From positions 1 through 52,696 of the IMG/VR virus record IMGVR_UViG_3300048091_000193: 52,696 nucleotides of DNA. The stretch is one strand, 5' to 3'. The translations under genes and the position numbers were made by a program. This document shows, piece by piece, positions 4,380-21,891 of the stretch. Below the pieces are notes generated by a model. That model searched no databases. It was given only the letters and a program-made list of their open reading frames with translations, and was not told the DNA's origin. The stretch is from a virus. Lineage: Duplodnaviria > Heunggongvirae > Uroviricota > Caudoviricetes. Each line of letters begins with the position of its first letter. Position 1 is the stretch's first letter.

Positions 4380-4798
4380 GCGCCACTCTAGCTCTCACCA
4401 TGCCAGCGATCGCCGTGGGCGCCCTGGGGCTCATGGCCGGCGGTGTAGCCCTGCTGGTCAACAAGCTCTATCCGCGGACGAAGCCACAAGTCAGCGAGGA
4501 GGTCTTCGTCGAGGCGACGGAAACTATGCCGGCGGATGTTATCTACGGCTTAGACAGGGCGCGCACGCTGCACGAGATGCTATCCAGCGCCAGCAAGCTC
4601 CCTACCGGTCCGAGTGCATCCAGCGCGAATTTCGCAGATGTCACCATGGCCGCTCTAAACGCAGGTCTCCCCACGACCAGGCGGCGCTATTTCGTAAAGA
4701 TGCTCAAGCACGTCCATGAGGAGAGGTTCTCTGATAAGGTGCCGGTCAGGTCGCAGGCGGACATTGTCGCGGCGCTCTCGAAAAGCAACACCTTCTAA
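4376..4798 (+). CDS. N-terminally membrane-anchored hypothetical protein
   Basis: GGAGG RBS, ATGA overlap, hydrophobic N-terminus LALTMPAIAVGALGLMAGGVALLV. Confidence 0.55.
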   Translation: MSATLALTMPAIAVGALGLMAGGVALLVNKLYPRTKPQVSEEVFVEATETMPADVIYGLDRARTLHEMLSSASKLPTGPSASSANFADVTMAALNAGLPTTRRRYFVKMLKHVHEERFSDKVPVRSQADIVAALSKSNTF

Positions 4799-5067
4799 AA
4801 TCAGCCTGGCATTCGCGCCTAAGCTGTAACACGCCAATCCTGTAATTGCAGGTAGCGCCGCCTAACACCGGTGCCGGGCGGTTGGTTGCGAGAGAACAGG
4901 CCTCGCCCTGCATATTAACTTCCACGATCCCCACCAGCTTCGTGAGGCCACGGTCGTCTATTTTGCAGGCCGCCCGGCACACTTGAAGGCCATATGTTCT
5001 CGCGCCTCGTCAAGCCGGGCATGGCCAACCAAGACCATGGGATATCCTCCCGACCATCAACACCTAA

Positions 5068-5085
5068 GAAATCAATACTGACTTG
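5068..5085. repeat. 18-bp palindrome family (degenerate copy)
   Basis: GAAATCA-ATAC-TGACTTG. Confidence 0.55.
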
Positions 5086-5485
5086 GCTAGTCCGCGGACG
5101 CATGGCGATCCCCTGTTTCCGGGGTAGTCTCGCCTTCACAAAACAACCAGTAGGACTGGTGATTGTAACAACAAAGACACACCCGGAACTGTTGGTCGCA
5201 AACACAAATCATCCGTCTAATGACAGAATTTCTAGGGATTATCTGTATAAAAACTGTTCATTTACTGTTCGTCGGGAGACAAAATCATCTGAAAACGAAC
5301 AGTTCCCGATCGAGATAGCTCTCAAGTTCCCAGGCGAATCGGTAGAAGAAAGGCCCGAACTTCTCCGAGTCATCACCAAAACGAGTGAAGCGGTTATAAG
5401 CCGCACCTGACTATTTTCGAGATAGAAGAACAAAGCTCCAGAAATAATAAAAACCTCAATAACGGTCGCACCCAATGATCGTCCG

Positions 5486-5600
5486 TAAGAGAGCACCGTC
5501 ACCCACCAGAGAGACGAACGACCATAGAGACGCACACGCCCTAAGAGAGCACCAACACATAGAGCGGACGCATAGACCTATAGAGACGCGTAGAGGGGAG
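5486..5600 (+). repeat. Purine-skewed degenerate tandem repeat (about 19-bp unit, 56-bp super-period)
   Basis: TAAGAGAGCACC at 5486 and 5542; ATAGAGACGC at 5524 and 5580; AGAG cores at 5488, 5508, 5526, 5544, 5561, 5582. Confidence 0.55.
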
Positions 5601-5892
5601 AGGGTGTGCGAATAGAAAGAGAAAAGACGGTGGGTGTAGGCGGCGGGGCCGTTCGCCTTACCATTCCACATTCCCTAAAAGCCACCCAAGGCCGCTCCGT
5701 CAGTTCCCATGGCAAAATCAGGAACCGGTAGAGATCTCCTACCGGCAAGACCCCAACTCGCTCCGTGGCGAAAGCCATCTGGAATCTGGGAGCCCACACC
5801 GGAATTCCCATGGTTTCGCCTTCACCATGGGGCGCCCTTCTATTCCCGGAGTGTGCCATGGCCAGGCCGAGAGCTTCCGACCCGGAAGTTCG

Positions 5893-5942
5893 CCGCGCTT
5901 CGTCTATATACAATACTTAAGTAAGTAAGAGACGAAGCGCGG
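5893..5942. promoter_or_regulatory. Twin hairpin element, copy 1
   Basis: 13-bp inverted repeat CCGCGCTTCGTCT/AGACGAAGCGCGG around a 24-nt AT-rich loop; near-identical core at 18214-18277. Confidence 0.65.
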
Positions 5943-6013
5943 ACACGGAAGTTACATGGGATACTCAGCTATCCATGGCATTTCCGGTGCGACGTTCTCC
6001 CTGAAGACCCCAG

Positions 6014-6089
6014 CCGCAATCCACAAAATCAGCTGTCATGTTGTGTTTGTCGCAATCAAGCGACGCACAACACAGAGAGCACGACGACA
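6014..6089 (+). promoter_or_regulatory. Early-gene leader element, copy E
   Basis: CCGCAATCC (6014-6022), bulged hairpin TGTTGTG..GTCGC/GCGAC.CACAACA, AGAGAG, ATG 6090; 6022-6092 CC/GG-free. Confidence 0.65.
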
Positions 6090-6932
6090 ATGGCAAAGAC
6101 CACGAAGAAGGCGAAGACCAAGACAGAAATTGCGGCCGAGACCACTGAGGCGAATGACGCCGTCGCCTTGATGGCGATCGACACGCTCACCGAAGCGGAT
6201 ATGTCCGTCATCGACACCCTGGAGGCGGTATCGACCGTCCAGGCCGAGGCAGTCTCCGAGATCGTCCTCGAAGCGCCGGCCATGACCGACAATGGCGAAA
6301 CCTTCGAGCAGGTGATGGCGAATGTCGACGACGACATGGTGGACAAGGCCGTCTTCGCCGTCGCAAAGGCGATCGATGACCGCGCCGCCTACGAGAACAT
6401 TCATGGACACCCCAACATCCAGCGCGTTCTCAAGAGCGTGCGCACCGCTTTCGTCTCCAAGTCCGCCACGCGGGCCATGCTCGCTGCCGGTTTCGACGAA
6501 GCGGACATCAATCGCTCGGTGCATGACGGCAAGCGCTACAACGTCTATGCGCTCGGCAAGCTCGCCGATGCCATCAAGGCGCTGTCCGGTGGCCAGATCA
6601 ACAACGCCATCAACAATGCCTGCATGCGCTCCCTCTTTAAGTTCAACAAGGCGAATGTCGCCTTCACGATGGACATGGCGAAAGCAGCCTGTTCCGCACA
6701 GATCCGCGTCGATGCCGCGGTGAAGGGTCTCCTGGTCAGGCATACGGTGTCACCGAGCACCGCGCCCACCCAGGCCTCCTCCACCATGCAGGCATTGGTC
6801 AGCCTCGGTGTCGTCACGTCGTCTGGAGGTGGTCGCAACCCCACCTTCACCGTGACCGAGGCGCCGGCCGCGAAGAAGCTCATGGCGATGCTCTCGACTG
6901 AGGGAGAGGAGGTGCAGGCGCAAGCGGCCTGA
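6090..6932 (+). CDS. Hypothetical protein, acidic N-terminal extension; paralogue of 8299-8880 (possibly winged-helix DNA-binding)
   Basis: Strong phage codon bias; aligns by eye with 8299-8880 (NVYALGKL/NAYAVEKM, NACMRSLF/NATIRSMF, SPSTAPTQASST/SQSTVATQHNST). Fold is a guess. Confidence 0.75.
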   Translation: MAKTTKKAKTKTEIAAETTEANDAVALMAIDTLTEADMSVIDTLEAVSTVQAEAVSEIVLEAPAMTDNGETFEQVMANVDDDMVDKAVFAVAKAIDDRAAYENIHGHPNIQRVLKSVRTAFVSKSATRAMLAAGFDEADINRSVHDGKRYNVYALGKLADAIKALSGGQINNAINNACMRSLFKFNKANVAFTMDMAKAACSAQIRVDAAVKGLLVRHTVSPSTAPTQASSTMQALVSLGVVTSSGGGRNPTFTVTEAPAAKKLMAMLSTEGEEVQAQAA

Positions 6933-7180
6933 CAAGCACATTATGGCGTAAGGGGAGGGGCTTCTGGCTCCTCCTCAGTATTACCGGGCTTTCCCATGGA
7001 AGTTCTAGGTTTAGGAACCGGTGGGGTCCTTGGGACCCACTGATGAGGATCCGTGTGGCGAACGGCGCCGGCCTATCCCAGGCCTGGTCTCCCATGGTGC
7101 GGCCACGGACCGCGTCTCCCTCGGCCAGGCCATGGTGTCTCCGCTGCCGGCCACGGCGCAGCACTCCCTGAAAGCCCCAC

Positions 7181-7241
7181 CCGCAATCCAGGTTTTCATC
7201 TGTCAATGTTGACTTACAGCAACACGACAGAGACCAGCGAC
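7181..7241 (+). promoter_or_regulatory. Early-gene leader element, copy F
   Basis: CCGCAATCC (7181-7189), contains an 18-bp palindrome copy, ACAGAGAC, ATG 7242. Confidence 0.55.
7199..7216. repeat. 18-bp palindrome family (degenerate copy)
   Basis: TCTGTCA-ATGT-TGACTTA. Confidence 0.5.
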
Positions 7242-7478
7242 ATGAACGACAAGCGCCTCTCCCTCATCAAGACCGCGATCGCCTCCACTCTCAACACCAT
7301 GAAGCGCACCAAGGGCACCGACATCGAGATCACGGTGCATCGTGCCCTGATCCAGATGCGCAGCGCGCTGCGACGCGAGCTCACCGGTGAGGATTCGACC
7401 CTGGAGATGATCAGCGCCTCGGCATACCTCGAGAGTGCCAGCTACGCCCTCGGCTTCGTCCCGGTGACCGCACGATGA
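7242..7478 (+). CDS. Hypothetical protein (78 aa)
   Basis: MNDKRLSLIKTAIAS...; phage-typical codons begin only at ATG 7242. Confidence 0.7.
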   Translation: MNDKRLSLIKTAIASTLNTMKRTKGTDIEITVHRALIQMRSALRRELTGEDSTLEMISASAYLESASYALGFVPVTAR

Positions 7479-7561
7479 CCGCGGACATCAAGTGGATGTT
7501 CCGGCTCGCCGTGATAGGTTCGATCGCCATACCCCTTCTCATGGCCTGGAGATTCAATTGA
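7475..7561 (+). CDS. Small membrane peptide (28 aa, not in ORF track)
   Basis: MTADIKWMFRLAVIGSIAIPLLMAWRFN; ATGA and TTGA overlaps on either side. Confidence 0.4.
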   Translation: MTADIKWMFRLAVIGSIAIPLLMAWRFN

Positions 7562-7740
7562 CCACGGTCTGTCTATGCGGCGTCTGTCGCCGGGAGCTTT
7601 CTGAGGAAGACGAGAAGACCGAACACAAGGTCTTCAAGCTTGGTGAACTCGCCTATATCGAGCTCGCCCATGTCGCCTGTGGTCGACGTGAGAACCTGGA
7701 TCTCAAACTAATGTTGCAACCACCCTACTGGGGCCGCTGA
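7558..7740 (+). CDS. Small zinc-binding-like protein
   Basis: TTG start overlapping the upstream stop; CLCGVC...HVAC. Confidence 0.45.
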   Translation: MTTVCLCGVCRRELSEEDEKTEHKVFKLGELAYIELAHVACGRRENLDLKLMLQPPYWGR

Positions 7741-7749
7741 AAGGAGCCA

Positions 7750-7777
7750 GGAGCGCCGCAGGGCGCTCCTTCCTTCT
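7750..7777 (+). terminator. Probable intrinsic terminator
   Basis: GGAGCGCC-GCAG-GGCGCTCC followed by pyrimidine run, just after the 7740 stop. Confidence 0.5.
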
Positions 7778-8019
7778 ACCGGGCACTTCCCATGGTTGCC
7801 GGGCCTGGGCGCCATGGAGGCGGCTACAGGGCTTTGAGGAACGGGCAGCTTTATAGGTGTTCGGTGGTAGGAACCGGTAGGGTCCATGGGATCCGCTAAT
7901 GCGGCCCGAGCCGGCCAAGGCGATCGCCATGGGGTTTCCCATGGGAGGGGCGGGGTCCGCCGTGTGGCTGGAATGCCACTGTGACGGTAGTGCCACGTGG
8001 CTTTTTGACCACGTGACTA

Positions 8020-8037
8020 TAAGTCAACACTGACTCA
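8020..8037. repeat. 18-bp palindrome family
   Basis: TAAGTCA-ACAC-TGACTCA; overlaps the stop of 8035-8235; left edge of the CC/GG-free island. Confidence 0.75.
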
Positions 8038-8235
8038 AAATTCGTGACGCGCTTGCGCATAGCGTTCATGCGCTTCTTGCATGTCTAGGACTTCGTCTTC
8101 GTCATAGTCCAGGAGATCGTCGACATCGACACTATCGAATGCAGCGCGTGCGAGTGCTTTCGCTGTCTTGCTGACGTGACGCTGGACTCGGTGCTGTGAC
8201 TGCGCTGCGCTCATAATCGCGTTATAGAAGCTCAT
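8035..8235 (-). CDS. Small protein with acidic C-terminus; no Gly/Pro/Trp
   Basis: 66 aa; leader CAACAGAGAGAACACGTC-ATG matches early-leader RBS style; DSVDVDDLLDYDEDEVLD tract. Confidence 0.7.
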   Translation of the reverse strand: MSFYNAIMSAAQSQHRVQRHVSKTAKALARAAFDSVDVDDLLDYDEDEVLDMQEAHERYAQARHEF

Positions 8236-8298
8236 GACGTGTTCTCTCTGTTGAGTGAAGCGAGAGAGCGCGCTTTGTCTGCGCGCTCTGTGTGACGC
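8236..8298 (-). promoter_or_regulatory. Early-leader-like intergenic element (hairpin + AGAGAG RBS)
   Basis: Minus strand: AGAGCGCGC-AGACAAA-GCGCGCTCT hairpin, then CAACAGAGAGAACACGTC-ATG. Confidence 0.55.
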
Positions 8299-8880
8299 TT
8301 ACAGCGCGATCTGAAAGTGTTCTGCGATCTTGACGACAGCAGCATTGTCGCGCTTGAGCGTAAACGTCTCGTCATTCGCTGCATTGCGCGCGACATTGAA
8401 CATATCGAGCGCGATCATCGCATTGATCGTGCTGTTGTGCTGCGTCGCAACAGTGCTCTGTGACTTCGTCGTCTGCACGCGCGTTGCTTTGATCTTCGCA
8501 TCAAACTTCGTCTTGATATCGTTCGAGCAAAGCGAAGCGATGACATCGCGCGTCACTTCAATCTTTGCATCTTCGAGCGCGAACATGCTGCGAATTGTCG
8601 CATTCGTGTAGACGTCAAGCTTGTCGAGTGCAGACGACGCTGCGAAGCGTGCAGTGGAGATCATCTTCTCAACTGCATATGCGTTCTTGCTGACATTCGC
8701 GACGCTGAAATTGCAAGCGACAAGCATTGCAACGACGTCGTCATGATCTGCAGCTTTTGCATACTTGTCGAGATTGCGCTGCATATTTGCATTGCTTGCG
8801 TTCTTCGTCAGTTCAGCTGCTTTGCGCATTGCGAATGCTGCAGCGATATCGGACTTGAGCGTTTCGATTGCGTTTGTCAT
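8299..8880 (-). CDS. Hypothetical protein with no Gly/Pro/Trp; paralogue of 6090-6932
   Basis: 193 aa from ATG 8880 after CACAACAGAGAGACACGACG; homology to 6090-6932 visible by eye; coding strand has zero GG and two CC. Confidence 0.8.
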   Translation of the reverse strand: MTNAIETLKSDIAAAFAMRKAAELTKNASNANMQRNLDKYAKAADHDDVVAMLVACNFSVANVSKNAYAVEKMISTARFAASSALDKLDVYTNATIRSMFALEDAKIEVTRDVIASLCSNDIKTKFDAKIKATRVQTTKSQSTVATQHNSTINAMIALDMFNVARNAANDETFTLKRDNAAVVKIAEHFQIAL

Positions 8881-8927
8881 CGTCGTGTCTCTCTGTTGTG
8901 TGTGCATCGCGTTGTTGCGATGACTAG

Positions 8928-8955
8928 ATAATAGCTATTAGACGCGAGTAAGCAA
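8928..8955 (-). promoter_or_regulatory. Candidate sigma70 promoter for the CC/GG-free operon
   Basis: Minus strand TTGCTT-N16-TATTAT, about 50 nt upstream of ATG 8880. Confidence 0.55.
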
Positions 8956-8969
8956 TTCACACATTGTTA

Positions 8970-8987
8970 CAAGTCAGAACTGACTTA
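8970..8987. repeat. 18-bp palindrome family
   Basis: CAAGTCA-GAAC-TGACTTA; right edge of the CC/GG-free island. Confidence 0.8.
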
Positions 8988-9135
8988 TACATTGATATGC
9001 ACGTATGGACGCGCATTCTCGCTCGATTAGCGATCGTGGGACTGGGTGTAGAAATTAAATTGCGAGAAGCGAAGTCCTAGAGAAATTTTGTTGCTTTGAT
9101 CCCATTGCCTTCTGGCTCGCCGAGACGATTCCATT

Positions 9136-9510
9136 CCGGTCCTTGGCCGATCAATCTGCTGCAGTCCTAGCGTTGATCGCTATATTGAGAGCAACCCTCT
9201 CGCGGAGGTGTGGAAAGTAGACACGCTGCGCTCTCATCCGGTTCGCCGGAATGAGCCAATGGTTCTGGGCCTGTCGGTGCTAGTGCTCCTCGGAGACACG
9301 AACCTAAGAACGACAGACGCCGGGGTAACGACCGGCCCGCGAGAGGGGATTTATCCCGGTCCTTGGCCGATCGACAGAACTTTCATCGATCTTAGATGCG
9401 CGATAGTTGTGACGGGTCTACGGGTGTCGCCCCTATACGGGATCGCGTATAAAGGACGGATATACGCGCGTGCGTATAAATCCCGAGGGCAGTGGGACGG
9501 GTCCTTGGCC
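9136..9510. repeat. Dispersed direct repeats in non-coding DNA
   Basis: CCGGTCCTTGGCCGATC at 9136 and 9356, core GGTCCTTGGCC again at 9500; GCGTATAAA at 9445 and 9472 with inverted TATACG at 9434 and 9461. Confidence 0.5.
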
Positions 9511-9734
9511 TATAGCTCGTTCTTGATGCGCCAGGCTTTGACTAGACCTTCGCGCCAGCTCTCTCCCAGCCGATCGAGGGCTTCCATGAGCCCCTTATGC
9601 GAGCCTGGGAGGAGGTCGAGGTTCTCGGTGATCAGCGCAACGGCGATCACCTCCGCGGTGGACATGCGCCCGAGGCTTTCGGGGCTGCGCTCGTAGCGCT
9701 CCGCGAGGCCTAAAATGATCTCGACCGGGTCCAT
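9510..9734 (-). CDS. Hypothetical protein
   Basis: MDPVEIILGLAERY...; start placed at ATG 9734, 2 nt from the upstream stop. Confidence 0.6.
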   Translation of the reverse strand: MDPVEIILGLAERYERSPESLGRMSTAEVIAVALITENLDLLPGSHKGLMEALDRLGESWREGLVKAWRIKNEL

Positions 9735-12428: not shown

Positions 12429-12623
12429 TTAGTGGAACACGGGCTTTGCTGCTTCGCTCGGTTCCTGGTTCTTGGCCTGGCGCCGCAACATGCGGATCGT
12501 TCGCGCCAGCTGCCTCTCGAGGAGCGCGCATCGGCGCTCCAGTTGTTCGTATGACAGGATCGAGCGCCCTTTGGCGTCGAACACATGCACGGGGTCAACG
12601 AGACGTTTTCTGCTCATGATCAA
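12429..12623 (-). CDS. Small hypothetical protein
   Basis: 64-aa ORF filling the gap below the helicase; short coiled-coil. Confidence 0.4.
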   Translation of the reverse strand: MIMSRKRLVDPVHVFDAKGRSILSYEQLERRCALLERQLARTIRMLRRQAKNQEPSEAAKPVFH

Positions 12624-12635
12624 TATATAGTTGGT

Positions 12636-14240
12636 TCACGCAGCTTTGCGCATATTAAACAGATGCCAAGGTAGATCCTGCCCGTCCGGAATGATGCCTT
12701 CGGCAAAGCCCGGCGTGGTCTCGACGATCGCACGGCGTTCCTTGGCGTGATCGCGCAGCGTCGAGTTGAGCTGGTCGCGGTAATCGACGATGAATGCCAC
12801 GTTCGGACCCTTCTTCTTGGCGCGCAGCCCGCGGCCGATGCGCTGCCGGTGGGCAACCTCGGCTTTGCCGCCGCCGGCAAGGATCACCAGACCGATCGCC
12901 GGCACGTCGACGCCGACATCGACGATGGTGGTGCCGATCAGCGCATCGAGCTCGCCGCTCGCCAGGTCATTCAGCGCCTTCTTGCGCTCGACCTGATCAT
13001 TCTCGCCCTGGATCTGCCGCACCTTCAGTCCCGCGGCGCGCAGCATCTTCACCAGGATCGGGCCGTGGGCCTTGCGCTGCACCAGGATTAGGGTCGATAG
13101 CCCGTGCGCCTTGGCCTTCTTCGCCATTTCGACGACATGACTGTTGCGGGTCTCGGACTCGGTAATCCCGAGCTGATAGGCGCGCTGCCAGGGTGACGAC
13201 TTGCGCAGCTTCGTCGCCGGCGGGGGATCTGCGAACAGGAAATAGGGCTTGGCCAGCACGCCGCGCTTGATCAGCGTATCCTCTGACACCGTCAGCAGGA
13301 TGGGGCCGAACGCAGCCATCAGCCGCATATTATCTTCTTCGTTGCCCCGCATGAACGGCGTCGCAGTCAGAGCCACCCGGATATGGGCGTTCTTGCACCA
13401 GCGCAGGATCTCGTAATACGAATTGCCGCCCGCCTCGTGCGCTTCCTCGCCGATCACCACCTCTATCATCTCGAGGATCTTTATCAGCCGGTTCCGGACC
13501 TTCACCTTCTGGTCGTAAGCATGCTGGCCGAGCGCCGCGATCTGCTCGCGGGTGAGATGTAGTTCCTTGATTGCGTCCTGGCGCACGATCTCCAGGCGCT
13601 CCGCCTCGAGCTTGGGCTCCTCCAGCTGTGACACCAGAGTCTGCACCATGCCGACATTGATGCCCTTGGTCGGCGTGAATTGCCCGTCGCCGATGACGCC
13701 GACGTTGAACTTACAGTCGCGCTCGAAGGCTTCCTTCATCTGATACATCAGGACGCCGCGCGTGGTGATGAACAGGGTCGGGCGCCGGTAGCGCGCCGTG
13801 ATCAGCTTTGCGATCTTGGATTTGCCGCCGCCGGTGGCCACCCGAATGATGCCGCGGCCGTGCTTCTCGACCTGGCGCACCGCCTTCATCTGGAAGTCGT
13901 AGCGCGGGTCGTCATTGCCGAATTCATCGACGATCGGGTTCTCGGGACCGTTCGGCGCCGGCAGCGGGCGCCGTGCCAGCATCACCTGGTAGCCCTTCCG
14001 GGTCAGCTCGTGCTGAACCATGTGAACGAAGCCGGCCGGGAACATGCAGGTGCGGCGCGCAAAGAAGCTCGATCGGCCATTCCAGCCGCCCTGGCTGAAC
14101 GTATTCATGCGCTCGTGGCCGAGAACGACGTAGCTCAAGACCTTCGTCACCACGTCTTTCACCGCGGTCAAATGCGCCGGATCGACCGGGGTGACTTTGG
14201 CGTCGATCGCATTGAAGGCGATTTTGACGATCTGTTTCAA
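12636..14240 (-). CDS. Superfamily 2 DEAD/DEAH-box helicase (UvsW/XPB-like)
   Basis: Walker A ATGGGKS, motif II variant GEEAH, ALTATP, VGVDVP, QRIGRGLR. Confidence 0.9.
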   Translation of the reverse strand: MKQIVKIAFNAIDAKVTPVDPAHLTAVKDVVTKVLSYVVLGHERMNTFSQGGWNGRSSFFARRTCMFPAGFVHMVQHELTRKGYQVMLARRPLPAPNGPENPIVDEFGNDDPRYDFQMKAVRQVEKHGRGIIRVATGGGKSKIAKLITARYRRPTLFITTRGVLMYQMKEAFERDCKFNVGVIGDGQFTPTKGINVGMVQTLVSQLEEPKLEAERLEIVRQDAIKELHLTREQIAALGQHAYDQKVKVRNRLIKILEMIEVVIGEEAHEAGGNSYYEILRWCKNAHIRVALTATPFMRGNEEDNMRLMAAFGPILLTVSEDTLIKRGVLAKPYFLFADPPPATKLRKSSPWQRAYQLGITESETRNSHVVEMAKKAKAHGLSTLILVQRKAHGPILVKMLRAAGLKVRQIQGENDQVERKKALNDLASGELDALIGTTIVDVGVDVPAIGLVILAGGGKAEVAHRQRIGRGLRAKKKGPNVAFIVDYRDQLNSTLRDHAKERRAIVETTPGFAEGIIPDGQDLPWHLFNMRKAA

Positions 14241-14302: not shown

Positions 14303-14971
14303 ATGCAGCTGCCAAACCAAATAGTCGTAGAAATCGGCCTTCTGCGCCCGAACCCGTGGAATTCCAATCACGTTTCACCCGATAACGAGGAGAAACTGCA
14401 GGAGTCCATTCGTCAGTTTGGACTGTTCAAGCCGATCGTGGTGCGGGACAAGTTGGACTATTACGAGATCCTGGGCGGTCAGCATCGCTGGGAAGCGGCC
14501 AAAGAGGTCGGACTCACCGAAGTTCCCATCTTTGTCGTCGAGGCCGATGACAACATGGCCAAGCGGATCACGCTGGCCGACAACGCGCGCTACGGCGCCG
14601 ACGACAGCATCGAACTCGCAAAGCTGATGGAGGAGATCGGGACTTCCGAAGATCTTCAGGGGTTCTTGCCCTACACCGACGCTGACGTGAATGCTATTTT
14701 CTCTCACGTCAATATAGCGCTCGATGAGCTGGATCTGTCGGGCGGATTCGAAGAAACCGAAGAAAAAGTCGTCGAGCCGAAGGCTGAGCGGGTCGCCAAG
14801 ACTCACACGATGATGCGTTTCAAGGTCGGCATCACCGACGCCGAGAAGATCACCGCGCTGATCGCCAAGATTCAGAAGCGCCAGGGTCTCACAGCGTCGG
14901 ACGAGCTGACCAATGCCGGCGACGCGTTGGTGTTCGCGCTGCTCAATGCAAGCGCCGGTGAGGACGACTGA
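14303..14971 (+). CDS. ParB/Sulfiredoxin N-terminal-domain protein 1
   Basis: LRPNPWNSN, SIRQFGLFKPIVV, ILGGQHRWEAA, ADNAR; no obvious HTH. Confidence 0.85.
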   Translation: MQLPNQIVVEIGLLRPNPWNSNHVSPDNEEKLQESIRQFGLFKPIVVRDKLDYYEILGGQHRWEAAKEVGLTEVPIFVVEADDNMAKRITLADNARYGADDSIELAKLMEEIGTSEDLQGFLPYTDADVNAIFSHVNIALDELDLSGGFEETEEKVVEPKAERVAKTHTMMRFKVGITDAEKITALIAKIQKRQGLTASDELTNAGDALVFALLNASAGEDD

Positions 14972-15156
14972 TGTTCGTCAAGCCGCGCCACGACGAGTGC
15001 AAAGGCTGCAAGTTCTTCAATCCGAACCGGCCTGCGCGCGAATGTCTGCCGTGCGGCAATGGTGAATTCTTCGAGGCGCGCATCCGCGATCGCGCTCCGA
15101 CCGACAACGAACTCATGAAAATGTATGCAGGGATGGGCTATGACCACGACGATTGA
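14971..15156 (+). CDS. Small Cys-rich protein
   Basis: CKGCKFF...CLPCGNGEFF; TGATG coupling. Confidence 0.6.
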   Translation: MFVKPRHDECKGCKFFNPNRPARECLPCGNGEFFEARIRDRAPTDNELMKMYAGMGYDHDD

Positions 15157-15847
15157 TGTCTCCAAGCTGCCGATCGAGGTCTGGGATATCACCCGGCTCA
15201 TTCCGCATCCGCAGAACGCTAAGAAGCACCCCGACGACAAGACCAAGCTGCTGTCGAAGTCGATCCAGCGCATCGGCATAGCCAATCCGATCCAGGTCGA
15301 ACCGCCCATCTATGCCGACGGCGAGACCAACCCAGAGCCTGGCCTGATCATCGCAGGCCACGGGCGCCGGCTCGCTGCGCTCGATGCTGCCTGGGCCAAG
15401 GTGCCGGTGATCGTGCGCCACGACCTGACCAAGCTGGAATGCGCCGCGCTGCGCATCGCCGACAACACCACGGTTTCGAACGATTACGACACCGAGCTGA
15501 TGAAGATGGAGATCAACCTGCTCGGCGACGGCGGGTTCGAGCTCGATGCCATAGGCTTCGACGACAAGCAGCTGCAAACCATGGTCGACGACTTCGGCGA
15601 TCTGGATAACGACGTCTTCGTCGAAGACATCGGCCAGGCCGTGGAGACCCAGAAGACCGAGAACGTTGCGGCAGCGGCTGCGATCGACCAGTCGGCGGCG
15701 CCGATCGGCGATGCCCTGGGCTTCAAGCGCGTCACCGTCGAGCAGAGCCGCAAGATCCGCGAGCTCATGGATGCGGCCGCGGGCAAGTTCACCGGGCTGA
15801 ACAAGAGCCCCGCCGAGATCCTGATCGCTGTGCTGGAGGACTATTGA
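15140..15847 (+). CDS. ParB/Sulfiredoxin N-terminal-domain protein 2
   Basis: LIPHPQNAKKH, SIQRIGIANPI, IIAGHGRRLAA, LRIADN. Confidence 0.85.
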   Translation: MTTTIDVSKLPIEVWDITRLIPHPQNAKKHPDDKTKLLSKSIQRIGIANPIQVEPPIYADGETNPEPGLIIAGHGRRLAALDAAWAKVPVIVRHDLTKLECAALRIADNTTVSNDYDTELMKMEINLLGDGGFELDAIGFDDKQLQTMVDDFGDLDNDVFVEDIGQAVETQKTENVAAAAAIDQSAAPIGDALGFKRVTVEQSRKIRELMDAAAGKFTGLNKSPAEILIAVLEDY

Positions 15848-16200
15848 TGGCTGAGATTATCAACGCCTTCGGGCGCAAGGCTGGCGATCCGCTGCCCGTC
15901 AGCGAACCGGTCAAGATCAAGGTCTGCAGCGCATCGTTGACGCTTATCAAGGAGCTCACGCGCCTGGTCGAAGCCGGCGAGGTGCGTAATCTGTGCGCTA
16001 TCGGTGTCAGTGACGGGCGCCCCGTCGCGGCATTCGGTATCCATACCCAGGAATTCAGCGAAATGGCGCTGCTTAGCGTCGCCGCGGACAGTCTGAAGGA
16101 GCGCCTGCGCGACATCATCGGTCAATTCCGGTCCGCCGTTCAGACCATCGAAGATGGCGACGACGATATGTATGACGGCGACGAGGATCAACCCTCGTGA
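15847..16200 (+). CDS. Hypothetical protein
   Basis: Coupled on both sides; acidic tail. Confidence 0.6.
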   Translation: MAEIINAFGRKAGDPLPVSEPVKIKVCSASLTLIKELTRLVEAGEVRNLCAIGVSDGRPVAAFGIHTQEFSEMALLSVAADSLKERLRDIIGQFRSAVQTIEDGDDDMYDGDEDQPS

Positions 16201-16907
16201 AATACATCATCGACAAGCGCTTCAATACCTCGGTTGAGCGCACGCCCCGCGTTCTCGAGGTTGCCGAAGGCTTCGGCCTGGGCCTGACCGACAAGGAATT
16301 CGTCATCTACGACAATTTCGAGGTCGAGGTGATGCCGGGCGATGTCATCTATGTCACCGGGCAGTCCGGATCCGGCAAGTCGCTGATCCTCAACGAGATG
16401 GCGCGGCAGATGGCCGACGAGGGCCTGCGCGTCGCCGATCTGAACAAGCTCGACCTGCCGAACAAGCCGGTCATCGAATGCGTCGGCGAGACGACCACCC
16501 AGGCTGCGGATCTGCTGGCGAAAGCTGGGATCTCGGACGCCTATATCTACCTGCGCAAGCCGTCGGAGCTGTCGGACGGGCAGCGTTATCGCCTGAAGCT
16601 TGCCATTCTGATGGGCATGCCGGCCGATGTCTGGGTCGCTGATGAATTCGGCGCCATTCTCGACCGTGTCACCGCGAAATGCGTCGCCTTCAACATGCAG
16701 AAGGTCGCCCGCGCGCTCGGCAAGACCCTCATTGTCGCCACCACGCACACCGATCTGAAGGACGAACTAGGTCCGTCGCTGACGATCACCAAGCGGTTCC
16801 GCCAGAAGATGGAGCTCGATCGCGCCATCGCCGAGATCGTGCCGCCCGTCGAGAGCGGGCCTTTCACTCGCTCGGTCGTCGAGACCGGGGAGGTGGAACG
16901 TGTTTGA
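16197..16907 (+). CDS. Stand-alone ABC-type ATPase (COG2401-like N-terminal part)
   Basis: Walker A GQSGSGKS, signature LSDGQRYR, Walker B WVADEF, H-loop VATTH; no permease nearby. Confidence 0.85.
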   Translation: MKYIIDKRFNTSVERTPRVLEVAEGFGLGLTDKEFVIYDNFEVEVMPGDVIYVTGQSGSGKSLILNEMARQMADEGLRVADLNKLDLPNKPVIECVGETTTQAADLLAKAGISDAYIYLRKPSELSDGQRYRLKLAILMGMPADVWVADEFGAILDRVTAKCVAFNMQKVARALGKTLIVATTHTDLKDELGPSLTITKRFRQKMELDRAIAEIVPPVESGPFTRSVVETGEVERV

Positions 16908-17031
16908 TCGCATGTCCTCCGCCGGCGTGTTCCTGGCTTTTCTGCTGCTGGTCGCCACCTGGGGCGGGCTGGTCTATGTGATGCGTGAGGACACGGCCGC
17001 GCCGCCGGTGATCGATCGGGTGATCCATTGA
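16900..17031 (+). CDS. Small single-pass membrane protein (43 aa, not in ORF track)
   Basis: GTG start after GGAGG; MFDRMSSAGVFLAFLLLVATWGGLVYVMRED...; overlaps both neighbours. Confidence 0.5.
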   Translation: MFDRMSSAGVFLAFLLLVATWGGLVYVMREDTAAPPVIDRVIH

Positions 17032-17942
17032 TCTCAGGGAGCGTCACTGGTGCGTCCGAAGACCCGAGTGCATACGACACGCTTGTAGAGCGTGCGGACG
17101 CACCACGACCCCGTTTCTCGCTGCTCGACAGCATGATTGTCGAGCGGGGCACCAAAGCTGACTGGGATCTGCTGCACGATCTGCACTACAAGGCCGAAAA
17201 CCTGCCGATCGGGCCGCGTTTCTGGAAGCTGACGCTCTACGGCGAGACCATCGGCGTGCTCGTGACCGCGAACCCGAAGGGGCTTTTGAAGGAGCGCCAC
17301 ATCGCGTTCCCGAAGATCAAGCCCAAGGGGTCCGACGGCAAGATCCAGAACACCTATCGCTACGTCTTCATCAACAAGAACTTCCGCGTCATCTCGCGTT
17401 TCGTGGTCGACACCATGTATCGCGGCATCGGCGCCGGCTACCGGATGATGAACCTGGTCTCGCGCATGGAGGGCAACACCTTCATGGAGATCCAGTCCTC
17501 GATGTCGAAATTCAACCTGTTCGGTCAGAAGGCAGGCTTCCGCTTCGTCAAGCCGATGAACGCCAACAAGTATGAGGCGGGGCTCAAGTTCTTCCGGACC
17601 AACTTCGCGAGCTCGCCGCAAGACTTCGAGGCGATCCTGGCGGAGCTCGAGTCCAAGGACCAGGCCGGACGCGATCGGCTGCTGCAGGAATGCAAGGACT
17701 TCTACTATCGCCATTCGGCGCTGGAGAAGACCGGCAACAACCGCGACAAGGGGCAGGGCCGCGTCGACGGCATGGACGCCCGGACGATCATCAAGGGTAT
17801 TCAGCAGATCACCCTGGCATCGCCGATGTATGGCATCTGGAAGAACCCGGATGCCGGACGCCCAGTCCCACAGCGGCTGCCGCTCACGGCATTCGAGAAG
17901 CAGGGTCCCAACGAGCCGTCGAACCTGGTCGGCCTGGAATGA
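17028..17942 (+). CDS. GNAT-fold acetyltransferase-like protein (COG2401-like C-terminal part)
   Basis: ISRFVVDTMYRGIGAGYRMM resembles the acetyl-CoA binding motif A; LHDLHY N-terminal motif. Confidence 0.7.
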   Translation: MISGSVTGASEDPSAYDTLVERADAPRPRFSLLDSMIVERGTKADWDLLHDLHYKAENLPIGPRFWKLTLYGETIGVLVTANPKGLLKERHIAFPKIKPKGSDGKIQNTYRYVFINKNFRVISRFVVDTMYRGIGAGYRMMNLVSRMEGNTFMEIQSSMSKFNLFGQKAGFRFVKPMNANKYEAGLKFFRTNFASSPQDFEAILAELESKDQAGRDRLLQECKDFYYRHSALEKTGNNRDKGQGRVDGMDARTIIKGIQQITLASPMYGIWKNPDAGRPVPQRLPLTAFEKQGPNEPSNLVGLE

Positions 17943-18199
17943 CCAGTATCTTCGCCTCGACCGCAAAGCAGACCGAGATCATGACCATCGTCTGCGCGGC
18001 GTCATCGCGCGGGGCGGAGATTTCGACCGGCGATCTGAGGGCTGCCCTGAGCTGGGCGCCGAAGCTTGCCGCTTTCCACTGTTCGCTGAAGTTCCTCAAG
18101 GACCACGGCATGCTTGTGGTTGAGAATCACGGCCGCAATGGTGGCACCGTGAGGCCGACTACTGCCGGATATGCCTTGTTCAAGCCGAAGCCAGTCTAA
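17939..18199 (+). CDS. Small winged-helix protein (86 aa)
   Basis: ATGA overlap; MTSIFASTAKQTEIMTIV...SLKFLKDHGML...VRPTTAG follows a helix-helix-wing pattern. Confidence 0.6.
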   Translation: MTSIFASTAKQTEIMTIVCAASSRGAEISTGDLRAALSWAPKLAAFHCSLKFLKDHGMLVVENHGRNGGTVRPTTAGYALFKPKPV

Positions 18200-20328: not shown

Positions 20329-21891
20329 TTGGCTGATCAGAAGACCCTCAAGAAGTTCCTGGAGCGCCGTCATCCCGATTACAAGCGGATGGCGGGCCAC
20401 TGGCGTTTCCTGGAAGCCACCTATGAGGGTGGCCGCGACTGGTTCGAATGCGGCAACATCTTCCGCTACATCAAGGAAGGCGACAAGGAATACAAGGAGC
20501 GCGTCGAGCGCGCCTATCGCTTCAACCATACGCGCGAGGTCACGGATCTCGTCCAGAAATACATCTTCAAGTCGCCGATCATCCGTGATGACACCGACGC
20601 TCCGCTCGAAATAAAGACGTTCTGGGAGAATGCCACGCTGTCGGGGCTCGACGTCAACCAGTTCATGAAGCTGGTCTCGACCGAATCCTCCAAGCTCGGG
20701 CGCTGCTATGTCGTGGTCGATACGACCATGCCGGCTGTCGAAACGACCGGCGCTCCTATTTCCAAGGCCCAGGCAAGGGCGATCAAGGCGCGCGCCTACG
20801 CCTATATCGTCAGCCCGCTCGACGTCCTCGATATCGGTTTCGACGAGCAGGGCGACATGACATGGGTTCTGATCCGCGAGCGTGTCCGTGACGACGCTGA
20901 TCCGATCAATTCGACCGGCGCCTGCTATGAGCAGTTCCGGCTCTGGACCAAGACCTATCATCAACTGTTCACCGTCGAGCTGCGCAAGAACGATATTTTC
21001 GTTGTGCCTGGGCCGCAGGTGCCGCATGCCGTCGGCACCGTGCCGGTGTTCGCCGTGGACCACGTCATCGGTGACAACAAGTATTCGGCGCCGGCCCTGA
21101 TCAACGACATCGCGTATCTCGACCGCGCCGCGGCGAACTACCTGTCGAACCTCGACGCCATCATTCAGGATCAGACCTTCTCGCAGCTGGTTATGCCGGC
21201 GCAGGGCCTGATGCCCGGTGAGGACAAATACAATGCTCTGATCGAAATGGGCACCAAGCGGATCTTTGCCTATGACGGCGAGGGCGGCGCGAAGCCGGAA
21301 TACATCTCCCCGGACGTCAAGCAGGCCCAGCTGATCATCACGGTGATCAACAAGATCATCACCGAAATCTATCACACCATCGGCATGGCCGGTGAGCGCA
21401 CGAAGACCGACAACGGCATGGGCATCGACAATTCGTCGGGTGTCGCCAAGGCCTACGACTTCGAGCGCATGAACTCCCTTCTCACGTCCAAGGCCGACTC
21501 CCTGGAGAATGCCGAGAATAAGCTCATTAATCTCGTCATGGCCTGGAATGCCAAGAAGGCTCCCGAAAAGGAGCTCGTGAAATACCCGGACACGTTCGAC
21601 GTCCGGTCCCTGTTCGATGAATTCACGATCGCCGAGAGACTGGCGCTTGTGGACGCACCGGACACCCTGCGTCAGGAGCAAATGAAGCAGGTGATCGAGA
21701 AGCTGTTTCCTCGGCTCGCCGAGGATCTGCGGAAGAAGATGGAGACCGATCTGAAATCGTGGCCGCCGAAGCTTGAAGATCTCGCGACGACGGTCGCGGG
21801 TGGGAGCAAGCAGCCGACGATCCCCGCAAAGGGACCGAAACCCGCCGCGTCCAAGCGCCAAGGACAGGTGACCAAAACTACCGGGCAATAA
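20329..21891 (+). CDS. Portal protein
   Basis: 520 aa immediately after terL; SGVAKAYDF motif typical of SPP1-like portals. Confidence 0.85.
   Translation: MADQKTLKKFLERRHPDYKRMAGHWRFLEATYEGGRDWFECGNIFRYIKEGDKEYKERVERAYRFNHTREVTDLVQKYIFKSPIIRDDTDAPLEIKTFWENATLSGLDVNQFMKLVSTESSKLGRCYVVVDTTMPAVETTGAPISKAQARAIKARAYAYIVSPLDVLDIGFDEQGDMTWVLIRERVRDDADPINSTGACYEQFRLWTKTYHQLFTVELRKNDIFVVPGPQVPHAVGTVPVFAVDHVIGDNKYSAPALINDIAYLDRAAANYLSNLDAIIQDQTFSQLVMPAQGLMPGEDKYNALIEMGTKRIFAYDGEGGAKPEYISPDVKQAQLIITVINKIITEIYHTIGMAGERTKTDNGMGIDNSSGVAKAYDFERMNSLLTSKADSLENAENKLINLVMAWNAKKAPEKELVKYPDTFDVRSLFDEFTIAERLALVDAPDTLRQEQMKQVIEKLFPRLAEDLRKKMETDLKSWPPKLEDLATTVAGGSKQPTIPAKGPKPAASKRQGQVTKTTGQ

Follow-up and report, generated by a model that had tools for sequence, protein, structure and literature searches.

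A GG/CC-purged gene unit with a glycine- and proline-free paralogue in a tailed phage and its relatives

The Paralogue Pair and Its Locus

IMG/VR virus record IMGVR_UViG_3300048091_000193 (Caudoviricetes) carries two related convergent genes, here called A and B, the second of which lies in a short unit almost completely devoid of the dinucleotides GG and CC. The window analysed here comprises the first 52.7 kb (52,696 nucleotides) of this 116,696-bp record, whose ends overlap by 127 bp, probably reflecting circular assembly. The genes and elements of the pair are as follows, with positions counted from the first letter of the window.

6090-6932, + strand: paralogue A, 280 amino acids (aa), with 13 Gly and 6 Pro overall
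8299-8880, - strand: paralogue B, 193 aa, with 0 Gly, 0 Pro and 0 Trp
8110-9076, no strand: GG/CC-purged zone, from the promoter region to the unit end, with 0 CC and four GG on the + strand
8265-8289, - strand: hairpin between B and the small gene, consisting only of alternating G/C; stem AGAGCGCGC / GCGCGCTCT
8035-8235, - strand: second gene of the unit, 66 aa, with a basic N-terminus and a very acidic C-terminus
8972-8985, no strand: palindrome AGTCA-N4-TGACT in the B promoter region
8022-8035, no strand: second copy of AGTCA-N4-TGACT, where the unit ends at its 3' side; it overlaps the small gene's stop codon

An alternative upstream ATG of B at 8907 would give a protein of 202 aa (open reading frame (ORF) 8299-8907); the start at 8880 agrees with the database form P0001. 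The two proteins share 26% identity over 161 aa in pairwise BLASTP (E 4e-12). Profiles of the A and B families align over 180 columns with 99.2% probability (E 1.3e-19; hhalign), and distant B copies match the A or the B profile with E values of 1e-8 to 1e-23 (hmmsearch). An earlier note on this DNA, made from the letters alone, had aligned the two proteins by eye and taken them for paralogues, one normal and one freed of Gly and Pro. Its blocks are recovered by BLASTP, the profile comparison leads to the same relationship, and B indeed contains neither residue, Trp being absent as well. Across the domain common to both proteins (A residues 82-268), 11 Gly and 5 Pro are found in A and none of either in B; the note had the Pro count right and put Gly slightly too high, at about 12. 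The acidic N-terminal addition that it ascribed to the normal copy is also present, as the first 81 residues of A contain 17 Asp and Glu versus 5 Lys and Arg and are disordered in the structural model. Nor does the family as such require the absence of Gly and Pro, since the 120 A-type relatives listed contain on average 13 Gly and 11 Pro.

GG and CC Are Purged from the DNA of the B Unit

Over the 967 bp between 8110 and 9076 the + strand contains 0 CC, against an expectation of ~60-67; elsewhere in the 116,696-bp genome, CC-free gaps reach at most 195 bp. GG is found on this strand at 8190, 8656, 8851 and 9007 only. The absence of CC from the + strand means that the message read from this zone contains no GG. 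Nothing comparable is seen for other dinucleotides genome-wide. Counted by codon phase, GG/CC occurs 19/51/53 times in the A gene and 0/2/0 times in the B gene, and the purge takes in the promoter region, the G/C hairpin, the second gene and the non-coding ends.

Since every codon phase is affected, and the non-coding DNA too, the constraint acts on the nucleic acid, in line with the earlier note, which had placed it on the DNA. That note saw a real purge and underestimated its scope, which takes in a second gene and everything from promoter to terminator and extends to an entire superfamily of relatives. We conclude that selection on the nucleic acid keeps GG and CC out of the B unit. Once these steps are removed, Gly (GGN), Pro (CCN) and Trp (TGG) can no longer be encoded; the small 66-aa protein likewise has 0 Gly, 0 Pro and 0 Trp. 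GG/CC is missing out of frame and in non-coding DNA as well, and a cause at the level of codons or tRNA was therefore dropped. APOBEC-like hypermutation was rejected as well: replacement of Gly by Asn, Asp or Glu fits G-to-A changes, but that of Pro by Ala, Gln or Glu does not, and both genes are intact and under purifying selection.

GG on one strand reads as CC on the other, and the purging of both argues for a reader of double-stranded DNA. Restriction-site avoidance in general is not supported, because short palindromes are not depleted as a class. In eight cassettes compared with dinucleotide-preserving shuffles, we counted 840 palindromic 4-mers versus 843.7 expected (z -0.16) and 228 palindromic 6-mers versus 262 expected (13% low, z -2.2), and GCGC, CGCG, GATC, TCGA and CTGCAG are abundant in the purged zone. 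As other palindromes are not depleted, the dinucleotide itself appears to be the target.

An origin without selection, through chance, a local shift in composition or a recent import of low-GC DNA, would find some support in the G+C content of the zone, ~50% versus 60% in the genome. However, ~60 CC would be expected in 967 bp even at 50% G+C and 0 are seen, the trait is kept where B proteins share only 25-50% identity, and CG and GC occur in the zone at 1.7-1.9-fold over expectation, an enrichment that compensates for the loss of GG/CC. We regard this explanation as already refuted and give it practically no credence.

Several details of the unit recur elsewhere. Homologues of the small gene come after B in relatives; in this phage a few GG/CC are back in its 3' half. 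The hairpin has counterparts of different sequence at the same spot in L003, L004 and L005. AGTCA-N4-TGACT is present in 28 copies in the genome, two of which flank the B unit. A sigma-70 scan upstream of B detected no consensus promoter, the sequence TTGCTT-16-TATTAT falling below threshold, and neither a tRNA nor an Rfam family was found near the cassette.

Conservation and Origin of the Purged Unit

The A/B family belongs to phage-plasmids of the RHEph10/pLM21S1 type, and at least 21 relatives retain a GG/CC-free unit of 0.7-1.5 kb and a Gly/Pro/Trp-free B beside an ordinary A. The purged stretch is syntenic, lying between a ParA-helicase block and the A gene. It is found in this position in an IMG/VR contig (L003), a Methylocystis metagenome-assembled genome (L005/L007), a Shinella plasmid (L009), a contig with a B homologue filed by NCBI as Bradyrhizobium sp. 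179 (L004) and the cultured Rhizobium phages V1VFA-S, RHph_Y2_11, RHEph10 and RHph_N1_15. Among further IMG/VR loci the purge is kept in 14 of 20, the Methylobacterium sp. AMS5 plasmid included. At the protein level, B has 23 homologues in the database (46-100% identity), of which 20 are free of Gly, Pro and Trp; the remaining three have 1-4 Gly/Pro and no Trp. The trait persists where B proteins share 25-50% identity. We found no paper describing a GG/CC purge in the literature.

A tblastn search with B returned no phage record, the divergence being too fast, and B copies were then located by synteny. At the DNA level, a search of the phage collection gave no match and a search of the plasmid collection gave weak Methylobacterium matches only. 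The B-type proteins of the cultured phages match the A or the B profile with E values of 1e-8 to 1e-12 and contain no Gly, Pro or Trp.

In the phylogenetic tree every B copy falls on one side of a single branch (support 94/91), a grouping which shared composition could inflate and with which synteny agrees. Where A has a conserved Gly or Pro, B has a different residue that is likewise conserved (G156 to E, P226 to A, G246 to R, P251 to E/D). The simplest reading of these sequences would be one old A/B duplication followed by long maintenance of both copies.

The trait has been lost in one Methylobacterium clade. The B copy of the M. oryzae plasmid contains 2 Gly and 1 Pro, and the purge of its DNA is gone; L008 and L027, which belong to this clade, have B copies with 2 Gly and 1-4 Pro, and out-of-frame GG/CC has been regained. 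This relaxation indicates that the purge requires continuing selection. The constraint is also gone in two further loci: the second copy in L039 is ordinary in composition, and L040 has no B copy in the locus. Together, L008, L027, L039 and L040 provide natural controls for what maintains the purge. In L026, L029, L031, L033, L035, L037 and L038 the cassette runs in the same direction as A and is not convergent with it; judging from gene order, the unit appears to have been inverted at least once with the purge kept.

In RHEph10 (L012, JX483881), GenBank places gp147 and gp148 on the + strand over the purged zone at 12510-13732; the two conserved ORFs without Gly and Pro, of 205 and 65 aa, are on the - strand. 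The annotation of gp147 and gp148 is probably on the wrong strand.

Predicted Fold of A and B

In A, a disordered region of ~80 aa precedes a helical domain, and the C-terminal domain is winged-helix-like; the predicted secondary-structure order of B matches the A core. AlphaFold2 (AF2) models the proteins confidently, with a predicted local distance difference test (pLDDT) of 93.5 for B and 84.5 for A, the A core being mostly >90, and gives both an identical helix order and an identical two-strand hairpin. The structure prediction proposed as a check in the earlier note therefore yields the same fold for both copies. In the B model the C-terminal ~110 residues form a helix-turn-helix with a beta-hairpin wing. 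This part matches the winged helices of MarR, MukF, JetA, histone H5 and RecQ in VIA-align with rmsd (root-mean-square deviation) values of 1.8-3.5 A over 73-95 residues, every top row being a winged-helix protein; the Z scores of 7.0-7.8 are only moderate, as values <8 in this program may reflect a common arrangement.

Other searches were less informative. Neither Pfam nor PHROGs contained a family matching A, B or the small protein. A profile search of the PDB yielded nothing beyond spurious helical (BRIL) rows, Foldseek against the PDB returned nothing at E <= 0.001, the viral and atlas fold libraries contained only unnamed phage proteins as matches, and the Atlas feature search produced a single weak lead (DUF6043, 0.82). 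The models are consistent with, and short of proof for, a C-terminal domain of the winged-helix DNA-binding type in A and B. The winged-helix guess of the earlier note thus holds as far as the models of both copies go, at the moderate level of the Z scores.

Because one fold is attained in A with Gly and Pro and in B without them, the constraint does not lie on the protein, and the pair serves as a natural control. B can also be seen as a natural protein design in a 17-letter alphabet, with a winged-helix-like structure made without Gly, Pro and Trp.

Neighbouring Genes and Sequence Elements

The following elements surround the pair.

6014-6091, + strand: leader of A, with a CCGCAATCC box at 6014-6022 followed by a GG/CC-free leader at 6023-6091
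7242-7740, + strand: two small genes of ~78 and ~82 aa, located after A and convergent with the B unit
7790-7944, no strand: five-site CCATGG array abutting the inner edge of the purged zone

The leader of A ends in a ACAGAGAGC..ATG ribosome-site motif common to B and other early genes; in the form ACAGAGAG..ATG, a ribosome-site motif is common to A, B, the small gene and other early genes. Boxes of the CCGCAATCC type are found at 868, 1373, 1764, 6014 and 7181, each with a GG/CC-free leader of 60-75 nt, and the leaders behind them carry a variable hairpin in addition to the shared ACAGAGAG..ATG motif. The box at 7181 precedes the first of the two small + strand genes.

Besides the five-site array, CCATGG forms arrays upstream of A (5707-5978) and after A (6994-7135), and 15 of the 24 genomic sites lie within 4644-7939. 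The layout is the same in most relatives, in either orientation of the cassette; V1VFA-S has 0 CCATGG in 20 kb. The earlier note had suggested that the pair activates the CCGCAATCC leaders or binds 18-bp palindromes. The CCATGG arrays are an equally good candidate for a site bound by A or B, beside the CCGCAATCC boxes and AAGTCA-N4-TGACTT palindromes.

Just past the outer edge of the purge lie three direct repeats containing GGTCCTTGGCC (9123-9151, 9343-9371 and 9485-9513). Given the genome end that we place nearby, these could be packaging or end-recognition sites. Further on, at 14303-18199, two ParB-N proteins, an ABC-type ATPase (PF00005) and a further protein of the PHROG 'ABC transporter ATP-binding subunit' are encoded directly before the terminase region, in a group of genes that even the relaxed M. 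oryzae plasmid has kept. Outside the window, at 52901-54754 of the genome (G000; L022:205-2058), lies a homologue of the T5 A1 DNA-transfer protein (phrog_1745, E 1e-149). It is found in RHph_Y2_11 and is absent from V1VFA-S and the M. oryzae plasmid; a 2026 preprint describes the A1 family as mostly confined to Demerecviridae.

Position of the B Unit Relative to the Genome Ends

Of the cultured relatives, B1VFA has fixed ends with a direct terminal repeat of 3,605 bp, and the repeat of V1VFA-S measures 3,939 bp (PMC12509600), a length estimated from coverage. The distance between the start codons of A and B differs between these two phages by 334 bp, exactly the difference in repeat length. 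We aligned both genomes base by base, which gave 98,634 testable starts. Only V1VFA-S starts 20977-21156 (180 of 98,634) map a 3,939-bp interval to 3,604 bp in B1VFA. The fitted interval starts in non-coding DNA that lies upstream of A and stops 0-150 bp outside the B promoter, and the fitted repeat end lies at or near a homology breakpoint. From these relatives we infer that the B unit occupies one edge of a terminal repeat of 3.6-3.9 kb, with its promoter at the tip and reading inward. The contig ends of 20 IMG/VR relatives were uninformative on genome ends.

The earlier note had called the recoded copy an immediate-early version. This is favoured indirectly by the promoter region that the unit has to itself, by the repressor-type palindrome in it and by the apparent position at a repeat edge in B1VFA and V1VFA-S.

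Interpretation of the GG/CC Purge

We hypothesize, at about even odds of being right, that B is a pre-early copy carried on the DNA that enters the cell first and hidden there from an activity that reads GG/CC, with A being made later. The ancestor of A and B would have been a protein specific to phage-plasmids, with a helical and a winged-helix-like domain, that was duplicated once long ago. B and the small acidic protein would form a self-contained unit from promoter to terminator which, placed at the edge of the repeat of a linear genome, would be the first to enter the cell and to be expressed. Without GG and CC, this exposed stretch would go unseen by an activity that requires these steps in double-stranded DNA, and B and its partner might prepare the cell, or the transfer of DNA, for the GG/CC-rich remainder. 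A would be the unconstrained copy, produced afterwards from its phage-type CCGCAATCC leader.

A more far-reaching version, which we consider distinctly less probable than the core hypothesis, describes the whole group as a superfamily of stepwise-entering, T5-like phage-plasmids of soil Alphaproteobacteria. Their first kilobase would be kept GG/CC-free against an undescribed dinucleotide-recognising activity, either an immune effector of the host or a weapon of the phage. In this extension, A and B would be winged-helix regulators of transfer or takeover, B being expressed from the purged tip, and both would bind the CCATGG arrays of the repeat.

A number of observations weigh against these proposals. 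The repeat is placed only indirectly, with a mismatch of 1 bp, and its placement depends on the coverage-estimated length in V1VFA-S; a second zone, in the structural genes, also fits with a deviation of 7-17 bp and is the only other one within 25 bp. Up to 150 bp of DNA with GG/CC may separate the cassette from the end. The cassette is inverted in several clades, so that an inward geometry of the T7 type cannot hold everywhere. The A1 homologue lies far from the cassette (52.9-54.8 kb) and is missing in V1VFA-S. Finally, among 401 genomes of the host order sampled around G001, the type I-F protein Csy3 (PF09615) was detected in 4. Avoidance of a type I-F CRISPR system, whose protospacer adjacent motif (PAM) is CC, was rejected because hosts so rarely carry this type. 

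As for candidate readers, Cas9 (TIGR01865) scored above the cut-off in 45 genomes of the same sample. A comparison of gene content between the purged genomes (G000, V1VFA-S and RHph_Y2_11) and the M. oryzae plasmid yielded no candidate GG/CC enzyme, the difference consisting only of ThyX-like, rIIB-like and HD-type genes and small ORFs.

Other explanations accept the selection and assign it a different agent. The unit might be an island free of modification: a bulky modification at GG/CC would block the host RNA polymerase, only the purged unit could be transcribed on arrival, and its products would then allow the modified genome to be used. This would account for the strictness of the purge on both strands from promoter to terminator, and the ParB-N and ATPase genes directly before the terminase can be cited in its favour. 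However, annotated relatives have no recognised pathway of base modification (no DpdA/Que genes, no hydroxymethylase and no Mom-like match), the ParB-N/ATPase cluster is kept in the relaxed M. oryzae plasmid, and B1VFA and V1VFA-S were sequenced by an ordinary Illumina preparation with enzymatic fragmentation (PMC12509600). We consider such an island improbable. We judge a constraint on RNA equally improbable, in which the first message either evades a reader of dinucleotides in single-stranded RNA, such as an RNase or a toxin that modifies mRNA, or gains maximal translation speed by lacking Shine-Dalgarno-like GG runs and slow Pro and Gly codons. The purged zone does coincide with a transcription unit, the leaks are mostly sense-strand CC, with sense-strand GG absent in 8 of 9 elements examined, and the 5' leaders of other early genes are GG/CC-free over 60-75 nt and have an AGAGAG-type ribosome site. 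A toxin that reads a dinucleotide in mRNA is also known, namely CmdT, which acts on GA (PMC11618068). Yet a single RNA reader would need the loss of only one of the two reverse-complement dinucleotides, which are purged nearly equally; promoter DNA upstream of plausible transcription starts, 90-285 nt before the ATG, is purged too; and selection for speed would not strictly empty non-coding parts.

The phage might also be protecting the unit from itself, the GG/CC reader being its own nuclease against host DNA or a DNA-coating shut-off protein, possibly A or B acting on CCATGG-type or other GG/CC sites that the unit lacks. T5 must likewise spare its first-step DNA from degradation driven by the phage's own A1 nuclease, a strong A1 homologue is encoded here (phrog_1745), and CCATGG arrays adjoin the cassette in most relatives. 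On the other hand, the other ~115 kb of phage DNA are rich in GG/CC and must survive as well, V1VFA-S is purged and has no A1, and no candidate enzyme emerged as common to the purged genomes and missing from the M. oryzae plasmid. Self-immunity seems to us slightly less probable still than the two preceding explanations.

Whatever its agent, a near-total loss of a dinucleotide over ~1 kb that costs a protein three amino acids and is kept down to ~25% protein identity is among the strongest sequence constraints visible in a phage, and it implies a previously undescribed reader of GG/CC. If the hypothesis of a first-entering B unit at the tip of the genome is true, entry in two steps or by a leading end would extend past T5 and T7 to temperate phage-plasmids, with a bearing on how first-entering DNA escapes destruction. 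The group has cultured members with tractable hosts, RHEph10 (R. etli CFN42) and B1VFA (R. leguminosarum VF39SM).

Comparison with Known Systems

The closest parallels are with T5 and other Tequintavirus phages. Both groups are large siphoviruses (~115-125 kb) with long direct terminal repeats, placed here by reference to relatives. T5-like repeats carry two oppositely oriented transcription units and are bordered by a non-coding, repeat-rich stretch, as at this locus, and an A1-type protein is encoded here too. Restriction-modification, CRISPR and Ssp systems act on T5-like phages only via sites in the repeat transferred in the first step, and this first-step DNA has been selected to lack defence target sites; the complete absence of GG/CC would be an extreme form of the same trend. 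The differences are considerable. The purged stretch is ~1 kb long and not 8-10 kb, a dinucleotide is removed completely at the cost of three amino acids in place of individual sites, A1, which T5 needs together with A2 for second-step transfer, lies outside the cassette, and B and the small protein match no PHROG. Unlike T5, these phages are also plasmids (RepC, ParA).

T7-like phages offer a second parallel, since the motif content of their leading region alone decides sensitivity. A tip of ~1 kb that enters first, with an inward promoter and a small acidic protein encoded by its first gene, is a feature of these phages that would recur here, the inward geometry being deduced for the arrangement of V1VFA-S, B1VFA and G000. 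However, the proteins are unrelated, and the cassette is inverted in some clades.

Among proteins, the winged-helix families (MarR/ArsR regulators, MukF/JetA kleisins, H5 and RecQ) share the helix-turn-helix and wing with the modelled C-terminus of B, whereas the N-terminal helical domain is unmatched and no sequence match exists in Pfam, PHROG or the PDB.

Avoidance of restriction sites and PAMs likewise removes short words under DNA-targeting immunity, and a PAM can be as short as a dinucleotide, as in Nme2Cas9 with N4CC (PMC9433092). Such avoidance is usually partial and site-specific, in contrast to the unit described here, where other palindromes are untouched. The immune system CmdTAC, in which CmdT ADP-ribosylates the adenine of GA in single-stranded RNA (PMC11618068), exemplifies an effector that reads a bare dinucleotide, which is the kind of reader the purge implies; however, it acts on RNA and on GA, and nothing ties CmdT to these hosts or to GG/CC.

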